DNA from: an uncultured Holophagales bacterium
GTDB lineage: Bacteria > Acidobacteriota > Thermoanaerobaculia > Multivoradales > UBA5704
Assembly (NCBI GenBank): GCA_963842525.1
Contig: CAWJGT010000004.1
Span: forward strand, 32,001 to 96,000
Reading direction: 5' to 3'
Length of the DNA stretch: 64,000 bases
Shown here: positions 17,926-27,642 of the stretch, piece by piece
Position numbering within the stretch: the first letter of the stretch is position 1
Layout: every line of letters starts with the position of its first letter
Program-made: the position numbers and the translations under genes
Notes under the pieces: generated by a model
What the model saw: the letters and a program-made list of their open reading frames with translations, nothing else
Databases searched by the model: none
Told to the model about the DNA's origin: nothing

Positions 17926-19120
17926 TTGAGAAGATCACCAACTCCATGCGTCTCGTGCCGGTCGACGGGGGGAGAGGCGTGTGGTCGCCCGCCGCGCCCT
18001 CCTCTGGCTCATTGCGGTAGCCTCGCGGTCATCGCGATCGCCAGCGCGGCGCTGCTCTGGCTGCGCATCGCGGGGCCGCGCCCAGTGGACGAGGCAGACG
18101 AGGAGATGGCCGAGACCAGCCCCGAGTCACCGCTCACCGAGCTGGCCACCGCCGTCGGCTTCGACGAGGACGACTGCGGACTGGACATCCTCTACGCCGT
18201 CACCGGCGGCATCACCGGCAACGCCGAGGGTAAGAGCCCCGTCGAGAGCCCGCGCGCGCCGTTCTCGCTCAAGTTCAAAGACGAGGTGAGCCCCTACAGT
18301 CTGATGTCGAGTTTCGTGCCTGCCAGGCGAGCAGGTCGAGGTCGAGGCCGTCTTCACGGATCAGCCGACCCAGCTCGAAGCCTCGGTCGAGGAGGGTGAG
18401 CTGGTGACCCTGGGACCGGACCGATGGCGCTGGACGGCGCCACAGGAGCCCGGCGTGCACTGTCTGGCCGTGCGCGAGGTGGCCTCGCGGCACAGCACCT
18501 GCCTCAACATGTTCGTGATGGTGCCTTACCAGGGAGAAGAGGAGATCAATGGCTACCGCATCGGCCACTACCAACGCACGCCGCTCAGGGGGCAGCCGGC
18601 GTACGCGATGCCCCGCGGGCTGATCGAGGTGACGAGGACGAATCTCGGTACCTGGGTCTCGCCCCACTTCCGGCTGGCGCAATTCATCGGCAAGCAGGAA
18701 AGCGGCTACCCCAAGTATCTCGTCCTGCGCACACGGCTGCTCCTCAAGCTGGAGGCGGCCCTCGAGGAGCTGCGCGAGCGCGGCGTCGCGTCCGACACCC
18801 TCTTCGTGATGAGCGGCTACCGCACGCCCTTCTACAACGCCTCCATCGGCAACCGCACCAAGTACAGCCGCCACTCCTATGGCGACGCCGCCGACGTTTT
18901 CGTCGACCGCGACAACGACGGACGCATGGACGACATCACCGGCGACGGCAAGTCCAACCTCAGCGACGCCCTGCTCATCTACGGCATGGTCGACGAGCTG
19001 TCGAAGGACACCTGGTTTCAGCCGTTCGAGGGCGGCCTCGGTATCTACCCCCCGAATCCGCGCTTCGGACCCATGGTGCACATGGATACGCGGGGGGAGA
19101 AGACGAGATGGAAGGGGTAG
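17926..19120 (+). CDS. membrane-anchored peptidase M15A / D-Ala-D-Ala carboxypeptidase-like (frameshift near 18319; start uncertain)
   Basis: SGYRTPFYN, SRHSYGDAAD, VHMDTRG Zn motifs; N-terminal TM in another frame joins by a 1-nt deletion (FVLPGEQVEVEAVF). Confidence 0.8.
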
Positions 19121-19244
19121 GAAGGTTCAAGCCCACTGATAGAGGTGCCAGCCGAACAGCTTTGGATCGTGGCCTGCGGGCCGCAGGTGGACAGGTCGCG
19201 GCCGACGCGGCGCGCTAGGCCGCGGGCGTGTGGGGCCCCTTGCC

Positions 19245-20294
19245 CTATGGGAGCGCCGGCATACCTTGCCAAGGCTGGGAGATCGGAGAAAGCGCGTTGA
19301 CCTCACGCACCCGCTCCTCCCAGGAGTCTTTCACCTTGTGGGTGCCGTTGCCTCCTCCGTATTTTCCGATGATCCAAACCGCTTCGGGCGGCAGGCCCGC
19401 TCCGAGGTACGCCCAGATGTCTGTCCTCGCATTGCCATACGCGACATCCAGGAGGAAGCCGTCATCGACCAGCTTCTTGAGAAATTTGAGCTTGAAAGCG
19501 CCCACTCCCTTCTGCTTGGGGACCGCTTCCTCGTTGGAGTCCGTCACGTGGAGAACCCCTGGAGCGAAGCCCAGGGGCCCCTCCAGCCAACTGCGCGTCG
19601 TGTTCGCGAGCCAGTAGGGCCGGCCCGTCAAATACACGTTCACATATCCGCGGGCCGCCTGTGCCATGGTCAACCGAGCGGCGCCAGGGTACGCCTTGGG
19701 GACATACTCCCTGTGGAGGAGCGGGGAAAAAAGATCGGCCTTGACATTCTTGATGATTTCTTCGTCGCTCGTCGTCAACGTGCCATCGATATCAAATATG
19801 GTAAGGCGCGTCGCTCGTGGCAGGACCCACAGCCTGGCCTCCGCGGCACTTGCATCTCCTCCAACAACCAACCGTACGTCATACACGCCGATGCTCAGCG
19901 GTGACGCGATGGTGAACCGGACGCGTCCATCATCGTTGGTTCGCTCCTCCCCCAGCGAAATCCAGCCCCCGGCAGTGTCCAGGAAACCGAGGACCGGCTC
20001 GTCTTCGAGATCTTTGGAGGAACCGCCGTAAGTGAATTTCCCTTCGATGGTGATCGGTCTCCCATCATCAGGCACCAGGAGGTCCTGGGCCGAGTGGCTA
20101 GGAGCTCCCGACCGCGCGACCACGCGATTGTGATGGTGCCTCCATGGCCGGACTGTCTGCGGGACAGGCTCGTGAAATGTGCACGACTGGAGCGCCTCAA
20201 CTGTACACGGAGGTAAGAGAGGGGAAACCGCATCTGCTGCGGCACTACAACAGGCTACAAGAAGAACAAACAGCCCAGGCACAGTACGACGCAT
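19245..20294 (-). CDS. secreted LNS2/lipin-like HAD protein (PITP RdgB C-terminal-like)
   Basis: AAGGGAGG RBS, signal peptide, FDIDGTLT, YLTGRP, AYGN..TDI.AY. Confidence 0.8.
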   Translation of the reverse strand: MRRTVPGLFVLLVACCSAAADAVSPLLPPCTVEALQSCTFHEPVPQTVRPWRHHHNRVVARSGAPSHSAQDLLVPDDGRPITIEGKFTYGGSSKDLEDEPVLGFLDTAGGWISLGEERTNDDGRVRFTIASPLSIGVYDVRLVVGGDASAAEARLWVLPRATRLTIFDIDGTLTTSDEEIIKNVKADLFSPLLHREYVPKAYPGAARLTMAQAARGYVNVYLTGRPYWLANTTRSWLEGPLGFAPGVLHVTDSNEEAVPKQKGVGAFKLKFLKKLVDDGFLLDVAYGNARTDIWAYLGAGLPPEAVWIIGKYGGGNGTHKVKDSWEERVREVNALSPISQPWQGMPALP

Positions 20295-20657
20295 GTTTCC
20301 TCCCTTCGCCGCGCTCGTCAGCCTCCCGGCAACAGGGAACGCACGATCCCCGAGCCCTGCCCAGGGGCCTCTGCTTCGGCCGTATGATACGTTGTGGTCA
20401 CAGGGAGAACCAGGTCCTCCTTTCAGCGACTGGGCTGGGCTGAACGACGGCCGGCGCTGCCGAGGCCGTGCGCCACACGCCGGTGGAGAGCGATGTTTCG
20501 ATCTCGGTCCAAATGCGGCCGCAACAGCTTCTGATCCGCGCACGCGACAGCGGCTCCCGGAAGCCTGACCCCGGCGACCGTGGCTCCGCCGGGGCGCTGT
20601 CATGGCCCCGCGGGGCGCCTCGGTGGACCCGCGGGGCCACAGTATGGCGGGCACCGG

Positions 20658-20863
20658 ACCCGATTTACGGTGAAACGGCCCTCATCGCGGCGATCCGCCG
20701 CGGTTCGTCATGATCTCGGCCCGATTCGCCGTGACGCGAAGCCGTTTCCCGCGAATCGGCCCTCGTTCGTCATGAATCGGCCGCGTTAGCGGCGATCTCG
20801 TCTCGTTCACGGCGAACTCGATCCCGTTCACGGCGAATCACGACCTGTTCACCACGATCCGCC
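20658..20863. repeat. degenerate ~20-21-bp tandem repeat (~10 units, core CGTTCRYSGCGAAT)
   Basis: periodic GTTC...GCGA motifs. Confidence 0.6.
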
Positions 20864-21256
20864 CTGGTCGCGCCGGCGCCAGCGAGTCCGCCAGCCGCTG
20901 CTCCATCGACAGGACGTCGTAGAGCGGCACGTCGGGATCGAAGCCGGCGATGACCCGCCGCAGCGGTGGGAGAAGGGGATTCTCTGCTGCCAGTCCACGC
21001 GGATCAGCGGGAGAGAGGGTCTAGGGCCTGGCGGAGCGTCCCGCGAGCCCTGGCGCGGAAGGGGACCGCGATCGAGGAGGGAACGAGAACCCGACTCAAG
21101 ACAGGGGCCCTCCCTTTGCCATAACCCCAAGCTATGGGCAGTGGGTCAATCCAGAACGCTAGATCTGGTATACTTGGTTCAGTTATACGGGGCCGGTTTT
21201 GCGCGATGGGCACCCTTTTAGTTGGCTCTACTCTAGTGCGGGAAGGAGGTGAGATC

Positions 21257-21382
21257 ATGGGGACCAAGAAGATCACTCGGAGCGCAGTCAGCGGAAAGTT
21301 TGTCAAGCCGTCAGCCGCGAAAAGCCATCCGAAGACGACTGTGACTGAGACGGTCAAGACGCCGCCTAAGAAGAAGAAGTAA
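21257..21382 (+). CDS. small basic protein (41 aa; RSAVSGKFV...PKTTVTETV)
   Basis: perfect AAGGAGGTGA RBS; resembles a recurrent tiny-protein family of unknown function. Confidence 0.85.
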   Translation: MGTKKITRSAVSGKFVKPSAAKSHPKTTVTETVKTPPKKKK

Positions 21383-21552
21383 CCAGGGCGCCTACCGAAG
21401 CCGCGCCCCCGGCTCTAACCGCGACTCCGAGCACGCAGTCGCTGCATCACTCACCCGCGCTGTTCCTAGCCCGGGCATTCATGCCCGGGCTTCGAGTCAT
21501 CGCGGGGAAAGGCGGTGCAACTCCCTGCCGAATTTGCCGTAGTTCTTCAGAG

Positions 21553-22494
21553 ATGACCACTTCCGCCATACCCGCGCCGCCGTGGGGAACCCCGCTTGGG
21601 GTCCGGGAGGGCTTCGCCGACTGCGTGGCCATCGAGGCGGTCTGCGCGAGCCCCCTCCTACGGATTAGCCACTGGCAGTGCCGCTTCGACAGCCAGCCGC
21701 TCCGCCAGGAGCGCTATTACCCCTGGTATGTGCTGGTCGTCCCACGCTCCGGCGCTTCGGTGCTCCACTCCAGAGGCCGCGCCAAGCTGCTCGACCCCGG
21801 GTGCGCGGTGCTGCACGAGCCCTTCTCGGTCTATGCGAGCAGCCACCCCTTCGGCTGCGGCGACCGCGGCTGGAACGTTGCCATCCGGCAGGATGCTCTC
21901 TTTCGAACGGACCTCGCCGATCCCCCGTCGTGCCGGGTCGAGACGATCCCGGTGCGGGCGTATCTCCGATGGCGGCTGGCTCTGGAACGGCAGGCGCGCG
22001 AGCCGGGGAGCGGGCCGCTGGAGCTGGAGGAAGCGACGATGCGGCTGGTGGCGGGCCTGCACGAGCCTTTGGCTCCCGGCGGGAGTGAAGGGCGCCCGCG
22101 GTCCGGCACGGCGGAGGCGCACGAGACCTGCTTCGAGCGCGCGCGGGCCGAGCTCTTCCAGCGCTTCCGCGAGCCGCTCCAACTGGCCGACCTCGCTCGC
22201 ACGGCCCATGCCTCGCCCTTCCATCTCTGCCGGATCTTCAAGCGGGCCAGCGGCCTGTCGGTCCACCGCTATCAAACGCGGCTGCGGCTGCTGGAGGGGC
22301 TGGACGCTCTCGTCGAGCGGGACGTCCCTCTCGCCGAGCTGGCGCTCGACCTGGGATTTTCGAGCCACAGCCACTTCACGGACGCCTTCCGCCGCGAGCT
22401 CGGAATGGCACCCTCCGCGTTCCGCCATCTGGCCACCGCCGAGCGAGCGGTCCGCGCCCGGCAAGCTCATCGGGTCCTCCACGCCTCGCTGTGA
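21553..22494 (+). CDS. AraC family transcriptional regulator
   Basis: LADLARTAHASPFHLCRIFK and LAELALDLGFSSHSHFTDAFRR double HTH; start could be 21481. Confidence 0.92.
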   Translation: MTTSAIPAPPWGTPLGVREGFADCVAIEAVCASPLLRISHWQCRFDSQPLRQERYYPWYVLVVPRSGASVLHSRGRAKLLDPGCAVLHEPFSVYASSHPFGCGDRGWNVAIRQDALFRTDLADPPSCRVETIPVRAYLRWRLALERQAREPGSGPLELEEATMRLVAGLHEPLAPGGSEGRPRSGTAEAHETCFERARAELFQRFREPLQLADLARTAHASPFHLCRIFKRASGLSVHRYQTRLRLLEGLDALVERDVPLAELALDLGFSSHSHFTDAFRRELGMAPSAFRHLATAERAVRARQAHRVLHASL

Positions 22495-22563: not shown

Positions 22564-25207
22564 ATGCAACGTTCCACCGCAGCCCTGATCCTGGCGGTCG
22601 TTCTGGCTTTTCCACTGGCGTCCCGGCTCGCGGCCCAGGAGCCCGCGGCCGAGCCGACCGTGGTGAGCGGGCAGGTCACCAGCCGCGACGACGGCCGGCC
22701 GCTGCCGGGAGCGACCGTGAGCATTCCGGCCCTCAACCTGAGCGTCGTCACCGGCGTGGACGGCAGCTACAGCCTGACGATCCCGGCCGGAGCCGCCCGC
22801 GGGCAGACGGTCGAGCTGACCGTGACGTTCCCGGACCTCGATACGAGCGCGGTCGAGATCGCCCTCACGCCCGGGACGGTGAGCCAGGATGTCGTCCTGG
22901 GCATCTCCTTCTACGAGTCGATCACCGTGGGATCGCGCGCCAGCGGCTCGGCGGCCGAGAAGTCGGTGCCCGTGGACGTCTTCACGGTCGAGCAGATCCA
23001 GACCACCGGCGCCAGCGAGACCAACCAGATCCTCGAGATGCTCACCCCCTCGTTCAACTTCCCGCGGCCGACGGTCACCGACGGCACCGACACCGTCCGG
23101 CCGGCGACGCTGCGCGGCCTCGGCTCCGACCAGGTGCTCGTCCTGGTCAACGGCAAGCGCCGCCATACGAGCGCCCTGGTGCACGTCAACGGCAGCATCG
23201 GCCGCGGCTCGACCGGCGTCGACCTGAACGCGATCCCGGCCTCGGCCATCGAGAGGATCGAGATCCTGCGCGACGGCGCCGCCGCCCAGTATGGCTCCGA
23301 CGCCATCGCCGGGGTCATCAACCTGGTGCTCAAGTCCGGCTCCTCGCCGCTCACCCTGGGCCTGAAGACGGGTGCCACCACGCACGGCGACGGCGAGCTG
23401 GTCGACGCCGGCGTCAGCGATGGCTGGTCGTTCGGCCGCGGCGAGCTGTTCGCCACCGTCGAGTACCGCGACCGCGGCGACACCAATCGCGCCGGCCCGG
23501 ACCCCCGCCCGCAGGGCTCGGTCAATCAGGTCGCGCAGCCCAACCACCACTGGGGGGACGCCGAGACCCAGGACATCATGGGCTTCTTCAACGGCTCGGC
23601 GCCGATCGGCGGCGGTGGCACCTCGCTCTACACCTTCGGCGGCGTCAGCCGGCGCGAGGGCTCGCACGGCGGCTTCTTCCGGCGCGCGCTCGAAAACCGC
23701 AACCTGCCGGCGATCTACCCCGACGGGTTCCTGCCGCTCATCGAGCCCGAGGTCACCGATCTCTCGCTGACGACCGGGGTGCGCGGCGCGGCCGGGGAGT
23801 GGTTCTGGGACGCGAGCGCTCAGTATGGGGACAACGAGTTCCAGTTCAACGTCAGCAACAGCCTGAACGTCTCGCTCGGCCCCACCAGCCCGCCCAACCA
23901 GACGAGCTTCGACGCCGGCTCCCTCGGCTTCGACCAGTGGGTGGCCAACCTGGACCTGAGCCGCGGCTTCGAGGTCGGGCTCGCCGGTCCGCTCAACGTC
24001 GCCTTCGGCGCCGAATTCCGGCGCGAGGGCTACCAGATCACCGCCGGCGAGCCCGCCTCCTACATCGACGGCGGCTTCCCGGACCAGTTCGGCGCCAAGG
24101 CGCCGGCCGGAGCACAGGTCTTCCCCGGCTTCCGGCCGTCCAACGAGGTCGACGTCAACCGCGACAGCTACGCGCTCTACGTCGACGTCGAAGGGGACGT
24201 CTTCGAGAAGCTGCGCCTGGGGCTCGCCGGCCGCTTCGAGGACTACGAGGACTTCGGCAATACCAGCGACTACAAGCTGACCGCCCGCTTCCAGCCCGTG
24301 CAGTCCCTGGTGCTGCGCGGCGCGGTGAGCACCGGCTTCCGCGCCCCGTCGCTGGGCCAGGCCTTCTTCTCGACGGTGAGCACCAACTTCCTGGCCGTGG
24401 GCGGCGTGCTCGTGCCGTTCGAGGTCGGCACCTTCCCGGTGGGAAGCCCGGTGGCGCGAGCGCTCGGGGCCCGGGACCTGCAGCCCGAGGAGTCGGACCA
24501 CCTGAGCTTCGGCGTCGCCTGGACGCCGATCAGCGCGCTCGAAGCTCGGGGCCGACTTCTACCGCATCGACATCCGGGACCGGATCGTGCTCTCGGGCAA
24601 CTTCACCGGACCCCAGGTGGCGGCCCTGCTCGCCCCCTTCAACGTCAACGGCGCCCGCTTCTTCACCAACGCCATCGACACCCGGACCGAGGGCTATGAC
24701 CTGACGGCGAGCTACGGCCGGAAGCTCGGCGCTGCCGGCAATGCGGGGACCCTGCGGCTGTCGGCCGGCTACAACAAAACCGAAAACGAGGTCGTCCGCG
24801 TGGCCCCGACGCCGCCGCAGCTCTCCGGTCTGCAGGAGGTCCTGTTCGACCGCACCGAGCGCCTGCGGGTCGAGTGCGGCCAGCCCAAGGACAGCCTCCG
24901 CCTGGCCGCCGACTGGGAGCGCGACCGGCTCTTCGTCGCGACGCGCGGAAGCCGCTTCGGCGAGTATTGCCTGGTCGACCGCCGGGTCGTGGACCAGACC
25001 TTCGAAGCCGAATGGCTGGCCGACCTCGAGGTCGGGTACAAGTTCCCGCGCTTCACCCTGGCGGTCGGGGCCCAGAACCTCTTCGACGCGTTCCCCGACC
25101 GCAACCTGCCGGACAACGCCAACCTCGGTATTTTCACCTACCCGAGCCACTCCCCGTTCGGGATGAACGGGAGGTTCGTCTACTCGCGGATCGAGGTCAG
25201 GTTCTGA
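22564..25207 (+). CDS. TonB-dependent receptor with N-terminal carboxypeptidase-regulatory-like domain (frameshift near 24542)
   Basis: signal peptide; plug LRGLGSDQVLVLVNGKR and IERIEILRDGAAAQYGSDAIAGVIN; barrel continues in the 24587-25207 frame ending in C-terminal Phe. Confidence 0.92.
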
Positions 25208-25208
25208 A

Positions 25209-27642
25209 TTGAGCCGCCTGTCCCGAACCGGCGTGCTGCGCCGCGACCCCGCGGCGCAGGCCGTCTTTCTGCCCGACGGCCGCGTCCTCGTCCGGCACGC
25301 GGCCGGGGTGAGCCTGCTGGGTGGACTGGCCCGCGAGGATCTCGAGCGGGTGCTCTCCGCAGTGGATGGGGAGCGCACCGTCGAGGAGGTGTGCCGGGCG
25401 CTCGCGGAGGAGTACGACCCCGAGGCGGTCCTCCGGCTCCTGGGGAACGTGGCCGGCGAGCTGGTCCACGTTGTTCCGCCCCCACGGCTGGCAGGCCCGT
25501 TCATCGTGCTCCTTGCCGAGGGTGCAGCGAGGCAGCGGCTCGCTGCGGAGCTGGAAGGAGCCGGCTTCACCGTCGGGTCCGGAGAGGTCCAGCGTGCGGC
25601 CTTCGCGGTCTGCGCCCTGGAGGGAGCTTCCTATCAGAGGCTGTTCGAGCTTCCAAAGGGTTTGGATCGAGGCGAGTGTTCCGAGCCTCTTCCTGACCGC
25701 GGACCCCGACGGGCTCCGCCTGGGCCCGGTCGCCGTGCCGGGCGCGAGCCCCTGTTTCGCCTGCGCGCAGCTCGCCGCCCTGGGGTTCCTGCGGCTCGAG
25801 CCCGCTGCGCTGCTCGCCGTCGCCGGAGGTCTGCGGTCGGGCTCTCTGGAGGGCTCCGCCGGGCTCGACCGGGCCGTTGCGGCGCTGGTCCGGGAGGTCC
25901 GGCAGGCCATGGACCCGCGGGGTGAGCCTGCGCTGCTGCAGCGGATCCTCCAGGTCACTCCCTCTGGAGAGACCCGCCACCTGCCGGTCGAGCGGATCGC
26001 CGGCTGCCCGGTCTGCGGCGGTGCGGCCCCGGGGAACGACCCGGCAGGGCTCGCCGGACGGGCCGAGCGAATGCGGGTCGAGTCGGTGGAGCGGCGTCCT
26101 CCGCGGACGGTCCCCTCCGATCCCGAGGGGCTCGTCACCTCGATCGGCATCCTGGGCGGCGGCACGGCCGGATACCTGGCGGCGCTCGCCCTGCGCCGCA
26201 AGGTCCCGGGCCTGGCGGTCACCCTGATCGAATCGAGCGGCTTGCCGATCATCGGCGTGGGCGAGGCGACGACGCCGCTCATGCCCCAGTTCCTCCACGT
26301 CGACCTGGGGCTCGACATCCACGAGCTGTTCCGCGAGGTCCGGCCGACCCTGAAGCTCGGCATCCGCTTCCTGTGGGGGAGGCCCGGCGACGGCGACTTC
26401 AATTATCCCTTCGGTCCCGTCCACGCCCTGGAGCCGTTCGTCTACGAGGGGGACATCCGGAGCTGCTCGCTCCAGTCCATGCTGATGACGGCAGGCGCCG
26501 TGCCGCTCTATGAGGCCGATGGGGCGGGATGGATCAACCGGCTGGGGACCGAGGCCGCCTATCATCTGGACAACGAGCGGTTCGTGGCCTGGCTGCAGCG
26601 CCGGGCCGCCGCGGCGGGCATCGAGCGGATCGACGCCGCCATTGCCTCCGTCGAGCGGTCGGAGGACGGGACCGAGGTCCGCGCCCTGGTGACGGACGAT
26701 GGCCGGCGGCTTTCGTACGACCTCTATATTGATGCCTCGGGGTTCCGTTCCCTCCTGCTGGAGCAGGCCCTGGGCTCACCCTGGGTCAGCTTCGAGGAAA
26801 GCCTGTGGACCGACCGCGCCGTGGTCGGTCCGGTGCCGCACGGCGGGAAGCTCCGCCCCTACACCACGGCCGAGACGATGAGCTGCGGCTGGTGCTGGAG
26901 CACGCCGCAGGCCGACGCCGACCACCGGGGCTACGTCTTCGCCTCGGCCTTCCAGACGCCGGAAGAGGCCGAGGCCGAGATGCGCCGGGCCAACCCCGGG
27001 ATGGGGCCGGCGCGGCTCGTCCGCTTCCGGGCCGGCCGCCACGAGCATTTCTGGAAGGGCAACGTGGTGGCCCTCGGCAATGCGTACGGCTTCGTCGAGC
27101 CGCTGGAGTCCACGGCCCTTCACATGCTGATCCGCAAGATCGGGCTCCTGGTGCGGGTCTTCCCGCTGCGCCGGGGTGAACGAGGCCTGCCGGAGCAGCT
27201 CAGCCGCAAGGTGGCCGCCTGGTGGGACTACCTGCGCTGGTTCCTGGCCATCCACTACCGCTTCAACCGCCGGCTGGACACTCCGTTCTGGCGGGCCTGC
27301 GGCGAGAAGGTGGATGTCTCACGGCACGAGGAGCTGCTCGCGGCGTTCCGGGAGCGGGGGCCGCTGTCCTACGATCCGGCGGCCCGTGCCGCCTTCGATT
27401 ACCCCGATCCGCTGTGGGGTCCGGAAGGGATCGACGCCCTCCTTCTGGGGCAGCACGTGCCGGCCCGGCTCCCCCGGCCGGAGCTCGGCCGGGAGGCCTG
27501 GTGCGAGCGGGTGCGCCGGGCTCGGGAGGTGGTCGCAAGGGCCACACCGCACGAGCGCGCTCTGCAGGTGATGGCAGAGAGGCCGGAGCTGTTGGAGGAG
27601 ATGGTGAAGGCGTTCCGGGCGGCCGGGCCGGCGTTCGGTTGA
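25209..27642 (+). CDS. RRE + ThiF/E1-like (TOMM leader-binding) + flavin-dependent tryptophan-halogenase fusion (frameshift near 25653)
   Basis: VDGERTVEEV winged-helix RRE; LGPVAVPGASPCFAC...CPVC; GGGTAG, IGVGEAT, TLKLGIRF, WCWSTP, FVEPLEST. Confidence 0.85.

Follow-up and report, generated by a model that had tools for sequence, protein, structure and literature searches.

An RRE, an E1-like scaffold and a MibH-like flavin halogenase encoded by one gene of a Holophagales bacterium: a candidate leader-guided peptide halogenase

Flavin-dependent halogenases of peptides that are made by ribosomes and modified post-translationally (RiPPs), namely MibH, ChlH, SrpI and MppI, are presented as single-domain enzymes in the available parts of the sources that treat them (10.1101/2025.01.12.632611, PMC10858898, PMC11791876). 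MibH, the structure of which is 5uao, is the Trp-5 chlorinase of the class I lanthipeptide NAI-107, and both MibH and ChlH (chlorolassin), which is 58% identical to it, act on peptides, as given in the available part of 10.1101/2025.01.12.632611. According to the available part of PMC10858898, MibH acts only on the leaderless, cyclised peptide, while SrpI, a brominase of the C-terminal Trp in a core that ends in LCCCW, has no embedded RiPP recognition element (RRE) and needs none in trans. SrpI and MppI are leader-dependent Trp brominases, and the leaders to which they bind directly are long and structured, of the NHLP or Nif11 type. In the cyclodehydratases LynD and TruD (4V1T, 4BS9), an RRE and an inactive E1-like domain with a Cys4 site stand before a YcaO domain, and the same module fold is found in McbB of the microcin B17 synthetase. 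In MccB/ThiF-like adenylyltransferases, an RRE (the 'peptide clamp') is likewise joined to a Rossmann domain of the E1-like kind that has a Cys4 zinc site. Here, we describe a gene in which such a module stands before a halogenase. The gene lies in a stretch of 64,000 nucleotides, hereafter the window, from an uncultured Holophagales bacterium (GenBank assembly GCA_963842525.1, contig CAWJGT010000004.1, positions 32,001 to 96,000). We propose, with a probability of roughly 0.65, that it encodes a leader-guided RRE/E1-like/halogenase fusion that is intact in the organism and acts on Trp residues of peptides.

In the assembled sequence, the gene is distributed over two overlapping open reading frames (ORFs) on the forward strand (25209..25925 and 25321..27642). 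Each ORF is protein-like in one part only, the rest being out-of-frame text rich in Arg, Pro and Ala, with the switch occurring near 25650. The original prediction, made from the sequence alone, had proposed that removing one C at 25653-25654 joins the two ORFs into a protein of about 810 amino acids (aa). The joining was confirmed, as a single four-base step at 25653 (CCAA read as Q) across 25209-27642 gives 810 residues (P0121) with zero internal stops. This read-through protein aligns from its first to its last residue with 14 intact homologues at 48-83% identity (intact homologues in the databases are about 790-920 aa long), and the residue at the frame break, Q149, is invariant in all 15 aligned rows. 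The choice of base, on the other hand, had to be widened. Since seven homologous loci read GAG/GAC CTN CAG/CAA where the window reads GAG CTT C CAA (codon comparison), the surplus base is either a T or a C within CTTCC. The TTG start is found one base past the TGA stop (25205-25207) of the receptor gene upstream. Because the gene call on record is a 682-aa protein (P0001) that lacks the N-terminus, the frameshift hides the RRE, just as predicted, and all motifs that were quoted with that prediction are present at verified coordinates (Table 1).

The halogenase domain matches PF04820 with 358.2 bits (cut-off of 21), covering profile positions 2-448 of 458. Its best solved relative is MibH, with residues 298-799 aligned to residues 18-523 of 5uao (E 5e-138, 464.8 bits), whereas the other 31 solved sequences score at most 205 bits, less than half of the MibH value. 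The residues G316-G318, A320 and G321 of the flavin motif are invariant in 15 of 15 rows, as are K382, E630 and E633. Of WCWSTP, W561, W563 and P566 are invariant, while the fifth place is Thr or Ile in the family. K382 is aligned to a Lys in five solved halogenases (5uao, 6frl, 6qgm, 9luq and 9lmg), and the ranges of the match to PrnA (query 4-88, chain 6-92) would fit with K382 corresponding to K79. We take K382 to be the catalytic Lys equivalent to PrnA K79, and the two later motifs to be those presumably meant by the family names WxWxIP and EPLES. Mutation of the equivalent Lys abolishes the activity of MppI, according to the available part of PMC11791876. The fusion thus shares with MibH and ChlH the halogenase with its C-terminal extension, GGGTAG, the Lys, WxWxxP, EPLES and, by prediction, a peptide Trp target. 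It differs in that MibH and ChlH are stand-alone proteins of about 540 aa, whereas the fusion adds some 300 N-terminal residues with the RRE and the E1-like scaffold. By sequence, the halogenase domain is placed in the MibH/ChlH clade of peptide halogenases, and peptidyl-Trp is its predicted substrate.

The two N-terminal regions had been predicted to be an RRE and an E1/ThiF-like domain, and structural comparison agrees with this assignment. For a homologue (L002; 28-row alignment), the first 310 residues were modeled with AlphaFold2, and this model, with a mean predicted local distance difference test score of 90.3, shows strands placed at residues 10-39 or 18-39 and helices at residues 43-82, in agreement with a winged-helix fold of three strands and three helices. 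When this model was used with Foldseek, it matched TruD (4bs9, E 7.5e-13) and LynD (4v1t/u/v), with both matches spanning 309-321 columns, as well as McbB (6gri, E 4.4e-08), MccB (3h5n, E 4.5e-07), UBA5 (E 7.1e-05) and ThiF (1zud, E 1.3e-04). Among 28 N-terminal sequences, 26 are matched by TIGR03882 (thiazole/oxazole-modified microcin (TOMM) precursor leader peptide-binding protein) at E <= 0.01, the best at 3.6e-11, with scores below the curated cut-off wherever a score is shown, and five of 28 relatives are matched by TIGR03859 at the same threshold. Two close homologues carry a precomputed PF05402 match, and one 875-aa homologue is labeled by NCBI as a TOMM precursor leader peptide-binding protein. 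The four cysteines C182, C185, C266 and C269, which form the two halves of a Cys4 site, are invariant in the 15-row alignment and in the N-terminal alignment A3, and nearly so in alignment A2.

Among 26-28 N-terminal sequences, none of the columns of the glycine-rich ATP loop or of the acidic and basic ATP-site residues is conserved. The only conserved columns of the module are G, L, G-P, Y, E and the four Cys, and the window protein reads LLAEGAAR at the position of the ATP loop. The PF00899 (ThiF) profile gave zero match to the window protein at E <= 1. Because no ATP-loop column is conserved and no PF00899 match is found, the E1-like domain is considered inactive, and the model supports describing the N-terminal module as an RRE followed by an E1-like scaffold without activity, comparable to that of the fused cyclodehydratases. 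What differs from LynD and TruD is the domain behind the module, a flavin-dependent halogenase rather than YcaO, and no ATP-dependent cyclodehydration is expected of the fusion. Neither the fusion protein nor the window contains a YcaO partner, and the only YcaO of the genome is encoded on another contig.

The origin of the module was addressed by searching a profile of it against 1.84 billion representatives. The search matched 5017 proteins at E <= 0.001 and 1171 proteins at E <= 1e-10, while 70 clusters reached E <= 1e-30. Among the best 150 matches, some proteins are 700-930 aa long and many are 310-390 aa long. When ten long matches that were new to the set were sampled, eight proved to be module-YcaO fusions and two module-halogenase fusions. 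One of the module-YcaO fusions scores E 1.6e-48 to the profile. Because the closest non-halogenase relatives of the module stand before YcaO (eight of ten sampled), the sequences indicate that the catalytic domain was swapped, and that the same docking cassette precedes either a cyclodehydratase or a halogenase. The idea that a halogenase takes the place of the cyclodehydratase is thereby directly supported.

The fusion is widespread. Of the 120 best protein clusters found with the 662-aa second frame, 114 are of at least 736 aa. Proteins of this architecture carry automatic names in the databases, such as 'tryptophan 7-halogenase' and 'TOMM precursor leader peptide-binding protein'. Among species-representative genomes, relatives are encoded in 306 stretches, and a set of 80 loci was retained. 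When the first 312 residues were searched by tblastn, 54 of these 80 loci gave a match, 34 of them from the RRE onward. According to record titles, hosts of the fusion are Thermoanaerobaculia, Holophagales, other Acidobacteriota, Nostoc, Polyangiaceae and Sorangium, with single metagenome-assembled genomes (MAGs) of alphaproteobacterial, gammaproteobacterial and Bacteroidia origin. In Dehalococcoidia and Tepidiformaceae, the halogenase occurs without the N-terminal module. The RRE part is kept from Acidobacteriota to Nostoc and Polyangiaceae. Two Acidobacteriota MAGs have long halogenase fusions doubled side by side in tandem (L023 5531-10658 and L024 5375-10718), and one Polyangiaceae MAG has a convergent pair (L055 7929-10487 and 11509-14283). 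The architecture had been expected to be unusual. In public data it is common rather than rare, while no account of a halogenase into which an RRE or an E1-like module is built was found in open-access full text and bioRxiv, although supplements and work outside this scope could list such fusions. Apparently, then, a catalytic family and a docking module, each of them known, are joined in an undescribed combination.

The neighborhoods of relatives contain RiPP precursors with Trp. The neighbor maps are built from the longest ORFs filtered by GC content at third codon positions (GC3), such that genes may be missed or mis-started and unnamed small ORFs are probably noise. In Thermoanaerobaculia loci L009, L010, L011 and L013, a peptide of 72-75 aa follows the fusion gene on the same strand; in L010, L011 and L013, it is encoded some 170-210 nt further downstream. 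The leader of this peptide, MKKKKLTL(A/S)(K/R)ETLA(H/R)LE, is similar to the lanthipeptide L1a type, and its Cys-rich core has invariant TDW and PPWC. The pair is flanked by an ABC exporter upstream and an S9 peptidase downstream. With NF038153 (class I lanthipeptide leader; cut-off of 22), this leader reaches 19.6 bits, and it includes an LxxxxL stretch, which, in the available part of PMC10858898, is the motif bound by the LynD RRE in cyanobactin leaders. In L009 (3497-3724) and L013 (5994-6239), a conserved zinc-ribbon-like protein of 75-81 aa with two CxxC pairs is encoded between the ABC exporter and the fusion.

In the Nostoc loci, the fusion gene is preceded by a 500-aa stand-alone halogenase. 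Ten of 17 Nostoc loci, as well as two myxobacterial loci, encode a precursor of about 120 aa of the Nif11 type, with a GG site and a core ending in MCCW. Nostoc locus L028 (1-17708) contains, besides this second halogenase, YcaO, TfuA, split LanB-like genes, two JmjC/cupin genes and two MBL-fold genes. Clusters like L028 are conserved across phyla (matching Nostoc loci, L076, L077 and L056), and no publication on this type of cluster was found in open-access full text and bioRxiv. Further Trp-ending precursors occur in L056, L062, L063 and L009, with endings that include VMCCW (alphaproteobacterial), DTTW (two Polyangiaceae) and CPDCW (L009). The MCCW endings resemble the LCCCW core of SrpI. 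Because SrpI, without an RRE, brominates the C-terminal Trp of LCCCW, the clusters with Trp-ending precursors look, by analogy, like an RRE-bearing counterpart of SrpI, with the difference that SrpI and MppI bind their leaders directly while members of the fusion family carry an RRE module of their own.

Table 1 Features of the fusion gene and its upstream neighbors in the window (positions are those of the window)
Feature	Coordinates	Strand	Basis or remark
Three-domain fusion gene	25209..27642	+	TTG start 25209, stop 27640-27642; 810 aa with one extra base read through
RRE-like region (PqqD-like winged helix), residues ~10-90	25236..25480	+	Weak PF05402, homologue model, Foldseek
VDGERTVEEV	25362-25391	+	Inside RRE-like region
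E1/ThiF-like scaffold, residues ~95-290, spanning the frameshift	25490..26080	+	TIGR03882, Foldseek
G-rich loop position, degenerate, PFIVLLAEGAARQRLA	25497-25544	+	Sequence inspection
Frameshift site	25651..25654	+	One surplus T or C in CTTCC, frame moved +1; codon comparison with homologues
CFAC, half of Cys4 site	25753-25764	+	Motif coordinates verified
CPVC, half of Cys4 site	26005-26016	+	Motif coordinates verified
Flavin-dependent tryptophan halogenase domain, MibH-like, residues ~305-810	26128..27639	+	PF04820, 5uao
GGGTAG (GxGxxG flavin motif)	26155-26172	+	Motif coordinates verified
TLKLGIRF	26347-26370	+	Lys382 at 26353-26355
WCWSTP	26890-26907	+	Motif coordinates verified
FVEPLEST	27091-27114	+	Motif coordinates verified
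AraC-family regulator gene	21481..22494	+	HTH_18, HTH_AraC
TonB-dependent receptor gene, directly upstream	22564..25207	+	Plug and barrel domains; frame change at about 24540-24600

Several points weigh against the proposed reading and should be considered together. The N-terminal piece of the window protein scores 19.8 bits with PqqD PF05402 (E 0.001), below the cut-off of 23.4, and the window protein scores 28.8 bits with TIGR03882 (E 1.3e-06), below the cut-off of 36.9, such that of the two profiles named with the original prediction, only PF04820 reaches its cut-off. The fold evidence comes from a model of the L002 homologue, which is about 50% identical to the window protein in this region, and not from the window protein itself. 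The likeness to MibH argues, at the level of sequence, for a peptide substrate but not for leader guidance, because MibH acts only after the leader is removed. No precursor-like ORF, exporter, protease or lanthipeptide gene is found near the fusion in the window, where its neighbors are the AraC-family regulator, the TonB-dependent receptor and a GGDEF protein. The comparison of neighborhoods suggested with the original prediction thus revealed Trp-bearing precursors beside the fusion in relatives and none beside the window copy. Even among acidobacterial loci, the neighbors vary, and an adjacent precursor is found in only four. In the class of the window genome, only 5 of 151 sampled genomes gave matches, and only one other genome of that class (G020) has the N-terminal part, without the RRE. 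The fusion gene is accessory and patchy. For every member of the family, the function, meaning leader binding, substrate, halide, regiochemistry and halogenation itself, is predicted from architecture, relatives and context. Finally, the sole sequencing run found (X1, a soil metagenome holding 6% of the sampled words, a share of 0.06, as Logan contigs) gives no confirmation of an assembly error, its contigs having near-zero cover at the frameshift site. At 80% likeness, the cover is 0.16 in the bin 25606-25672, and 59 of 65 records are less than 90% alike, so that no habitat should be inferred.

A frame-broken gene raises the question of whether the extra base belongs to the organism or only to its assembly. 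If the frameshift is real, the fusion gene, and perhaps the receptor gene as well, would be a recently inactivated pseudogene, left behind by a RiPP pathway that was lost or transferred. This would fit with two adjacent genes, receptor and fusion, both being frame-broken, with no RiPP genes or precursor having been found nearby, and with the patchy occurrence in 5 of 151 genomes of the class, as for a dispensable accessory gene. We nonetheless consider it unlikely. The essential rpoB gene (contig C9 of the window genome, about 670320-674532) is likewise broken into two frames in this assembly, and several LanB- and LanC-like genes are split over frames as well. In rpoB, an 88-aa frame is followed by a 1375-aa frame, the change occurring after about residue 70, while the neighboring rpoC is intact; a break in rpoB beside an intact rpoC suggests single-base insertion errors in the assembly. 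The frame breaks in rpoB, the upstream receptor and the fusion gene (three breaks compared) all shift in the same direction. Moreover, apart from the extra base, the fusion gene is clean, with no stops and with all catalytic and structural residues kept. Because rpoB, the upstream receptor and the LanB- and LanC-like genes are frame-broken too, we regard the frameshift as quite likely an assembly or sequencing artefact, and the organism probably makes the intact fusion protein.

The N-terminal module might also serve something other than leader reading, either as a scaffold for dimerization or stability or by binding another ligand, with the halogenase acting on free tryptophan, a small molecule or leaderless peptides. 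The E1-like domains of LynD and TruD dimerize, the RRE family scores are below threshold, the G020 relative lacks the RRE part and the surroundings of the window copy are no RiPP cluster. Also in favor of such a role is the leader-independence of MibH, as described in the available part of PMC10858898. These observations are outweighed, in our opinion, by the nearest relatives of the module being the leader-binding modules of YcaO cyclodehydratases, by the retention of the RRE across phyla described above and by the precursor genes that adjoin the fusion in many relatives. Activity on free Trp only, which was the outcome that would have spoken against the original prediction, is likewise not what the sequences point to, as MibH is the closest solved enzyme, free-Trp halogenases score less than half of it, and Trp precursors stand beside relatives. 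A module without a leader-reading role is thus improbable. A complex prediction of the L010 N-terminal module with its adjacent peptide scored 0.00 in both runs, with the controls not folded, and it weighs neither way. The G020 form (L081 9756-11957, on G020:C7) encodes 733 aa, which start within the E1-like domain at its Rossmann part.

Far less probable is an E1/ThiF-like domain that works as an active, MccB-like adenylating enzyme on the C-terminal carboxylate of Trp-ending precursors, the halogenase then acting on the same residue. ThiF-like RiPP enzymes do act on carboxylates, as reported in the available part of PMC12596934, many of the associated precursors end in Trp, and MccB, with an RRE and an active E1 domain that acts on the peptide C-terminus, is among the fold matches. 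The fusion family, however, differs from MccB-type enzymes in that the ATP loop and ATP-site residues are not conserved. The lack of any PF00899 match and the LLAEGAAR sequence point the same way, and inactive E1-like TruD and LynD match better than MccB or ThiF. Lastly, a programmed +1 ribosomal frameshift at CUU-C, for which the resemblance of a CUU codon with a +1 slip to the prfB site could be cited, is scarcely credible, as the 14 aligned homologues and seven codon-compared loci are single open frames with CTN CAG/CAA, the site has no in-frame stop or rare codon and the other frame breaks of the assembly offer a simpler explanation.

Upstream of the fusion gene, the plug and the first part of the barrel of the receptor are encoded in one frame and the end of the barrel (profile 312-436) in the next. 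The one-base spacing between receptor and fusion may reflect co-transcription in the window. A functional pairing of receptor and halogenase as a trait of the family was considered and dropped, since a similar receptor adjoins the gene in only 1 of 81 other loci (L005). Downstream, genes for a Reg_prop/GGDEF protein and for an AidB-like acyl-CoA dehydrogenase are found on the opposite strand, and further out the window encodes an AMP-binding enzyme, a protein of the BNR/sortilin type and an M15 peptidase. Near the fusion gene, no Rfam family, tRNA or promoter-like site was found, and only one weak terminator-like site. The region 19120-21480, a stretch of about 2.3 kb before the AraC gene, contains only short, weakly coding ORFs (GC3 0.78), with no Rfam or tRNA match.

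The window genome consists of 9.95 Mb in 34 contigs, in which the fusion is single-copy, with no second copy found. An orthologue of the L009-L013 precursor was not found: tblastn against the window genome gave leader-level likeness only (best E 8e-4), with nothing in the window, and no peptide of this type was found in the fetched flanks of other acidobacterial loci. What the genome does contain, outside the window, is at least 22 dispersed Cys-rich peptides of 47-78 aa with a leader of the form MKK..KKLxLx(K/R)ETLxxL followed by GG or AG, at sites on contigs C1, C3, C7, C8, C9, C13, C14, C19, C23, C25 and C34. Eight of the 22 have a Trp in the core, one of them ending in LCW, and two of four tested passed the NF038153 cut-off. 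Five of the sites, with six peptides, adjoin LanC-like genes. Examples are the peptide at C9:134212-134403, which stands behind a LanC-like gene (C9:133018-134145), and two tandem peptides at C23:366368-367043. LanB-like genes and one YcaO are encoded in the genome as well, on contigs other than that of the window.

For the leader-guided halogenase that we favor, the following mechanism can be proposed. The RRE would bind an LxxxxL-type stretch of the precursor leader, and docking of the leader would hold the core beside the halogenase. The E1-like domain, catalytically dead and with its Cys4 site of the zinc type, would form, together with the RRE, a docking and probably dimerizing scaffold. 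The halogenase would make hypohalous acid at the flavin from FADH2 supplied by a separate reductase, O2 and halide, and this would be passed via the conserved K382 to the Trp indole of the tethered peptide. In the window genome, likely substrates would be found among the scattered Cys-rich peptides whose leaders are of the class I lanthipeptide type. A more tentative and rather doubtful extension is that the orphan fusion is a trans-acting enzyme, its RRE reading the shared KKLxLx(K/R)ETLxxL leader so that Trp is halogenated in many dispersed peptides, with the LynD-type module being a portable cassette that moved from YcaO to the halogenase. ProcM, which serves the prochlorosins, offers a parallel for such a trans-acting enzyme.

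For the window alone, the outcome is more modest, an intact-looking orphan copy behind a probable assembly indel, in an assembly with frame errors even in rpoB. The broader meaning comes from the family. The homologues of the same architecture that were collected (14 full-length alignments, and 54 of 80 loci with the N-terminal part) form a large family across several phyla, with enzyme-precursor pairs such as those of L010, L011 and the Nostoc MCCW clusters. As described in the cited sources, the characterized RiPP halogenases work on leader-free peptide (MibH), work on varied unrelated peptides (ChlH) or bind long structured leaders without an RRE (SrpI and MppI). If the proposed reading is true, a natural halogenase that brings along an RRE/E1-like docking module would add a fourth solution and clearly exemplify how catalytic domains are exchanged behind a leader-binding cassette that is conserved, and the family would offer a practical starting point for programmable, leader-addressed enzymatic chlorination or bromination of peptides.

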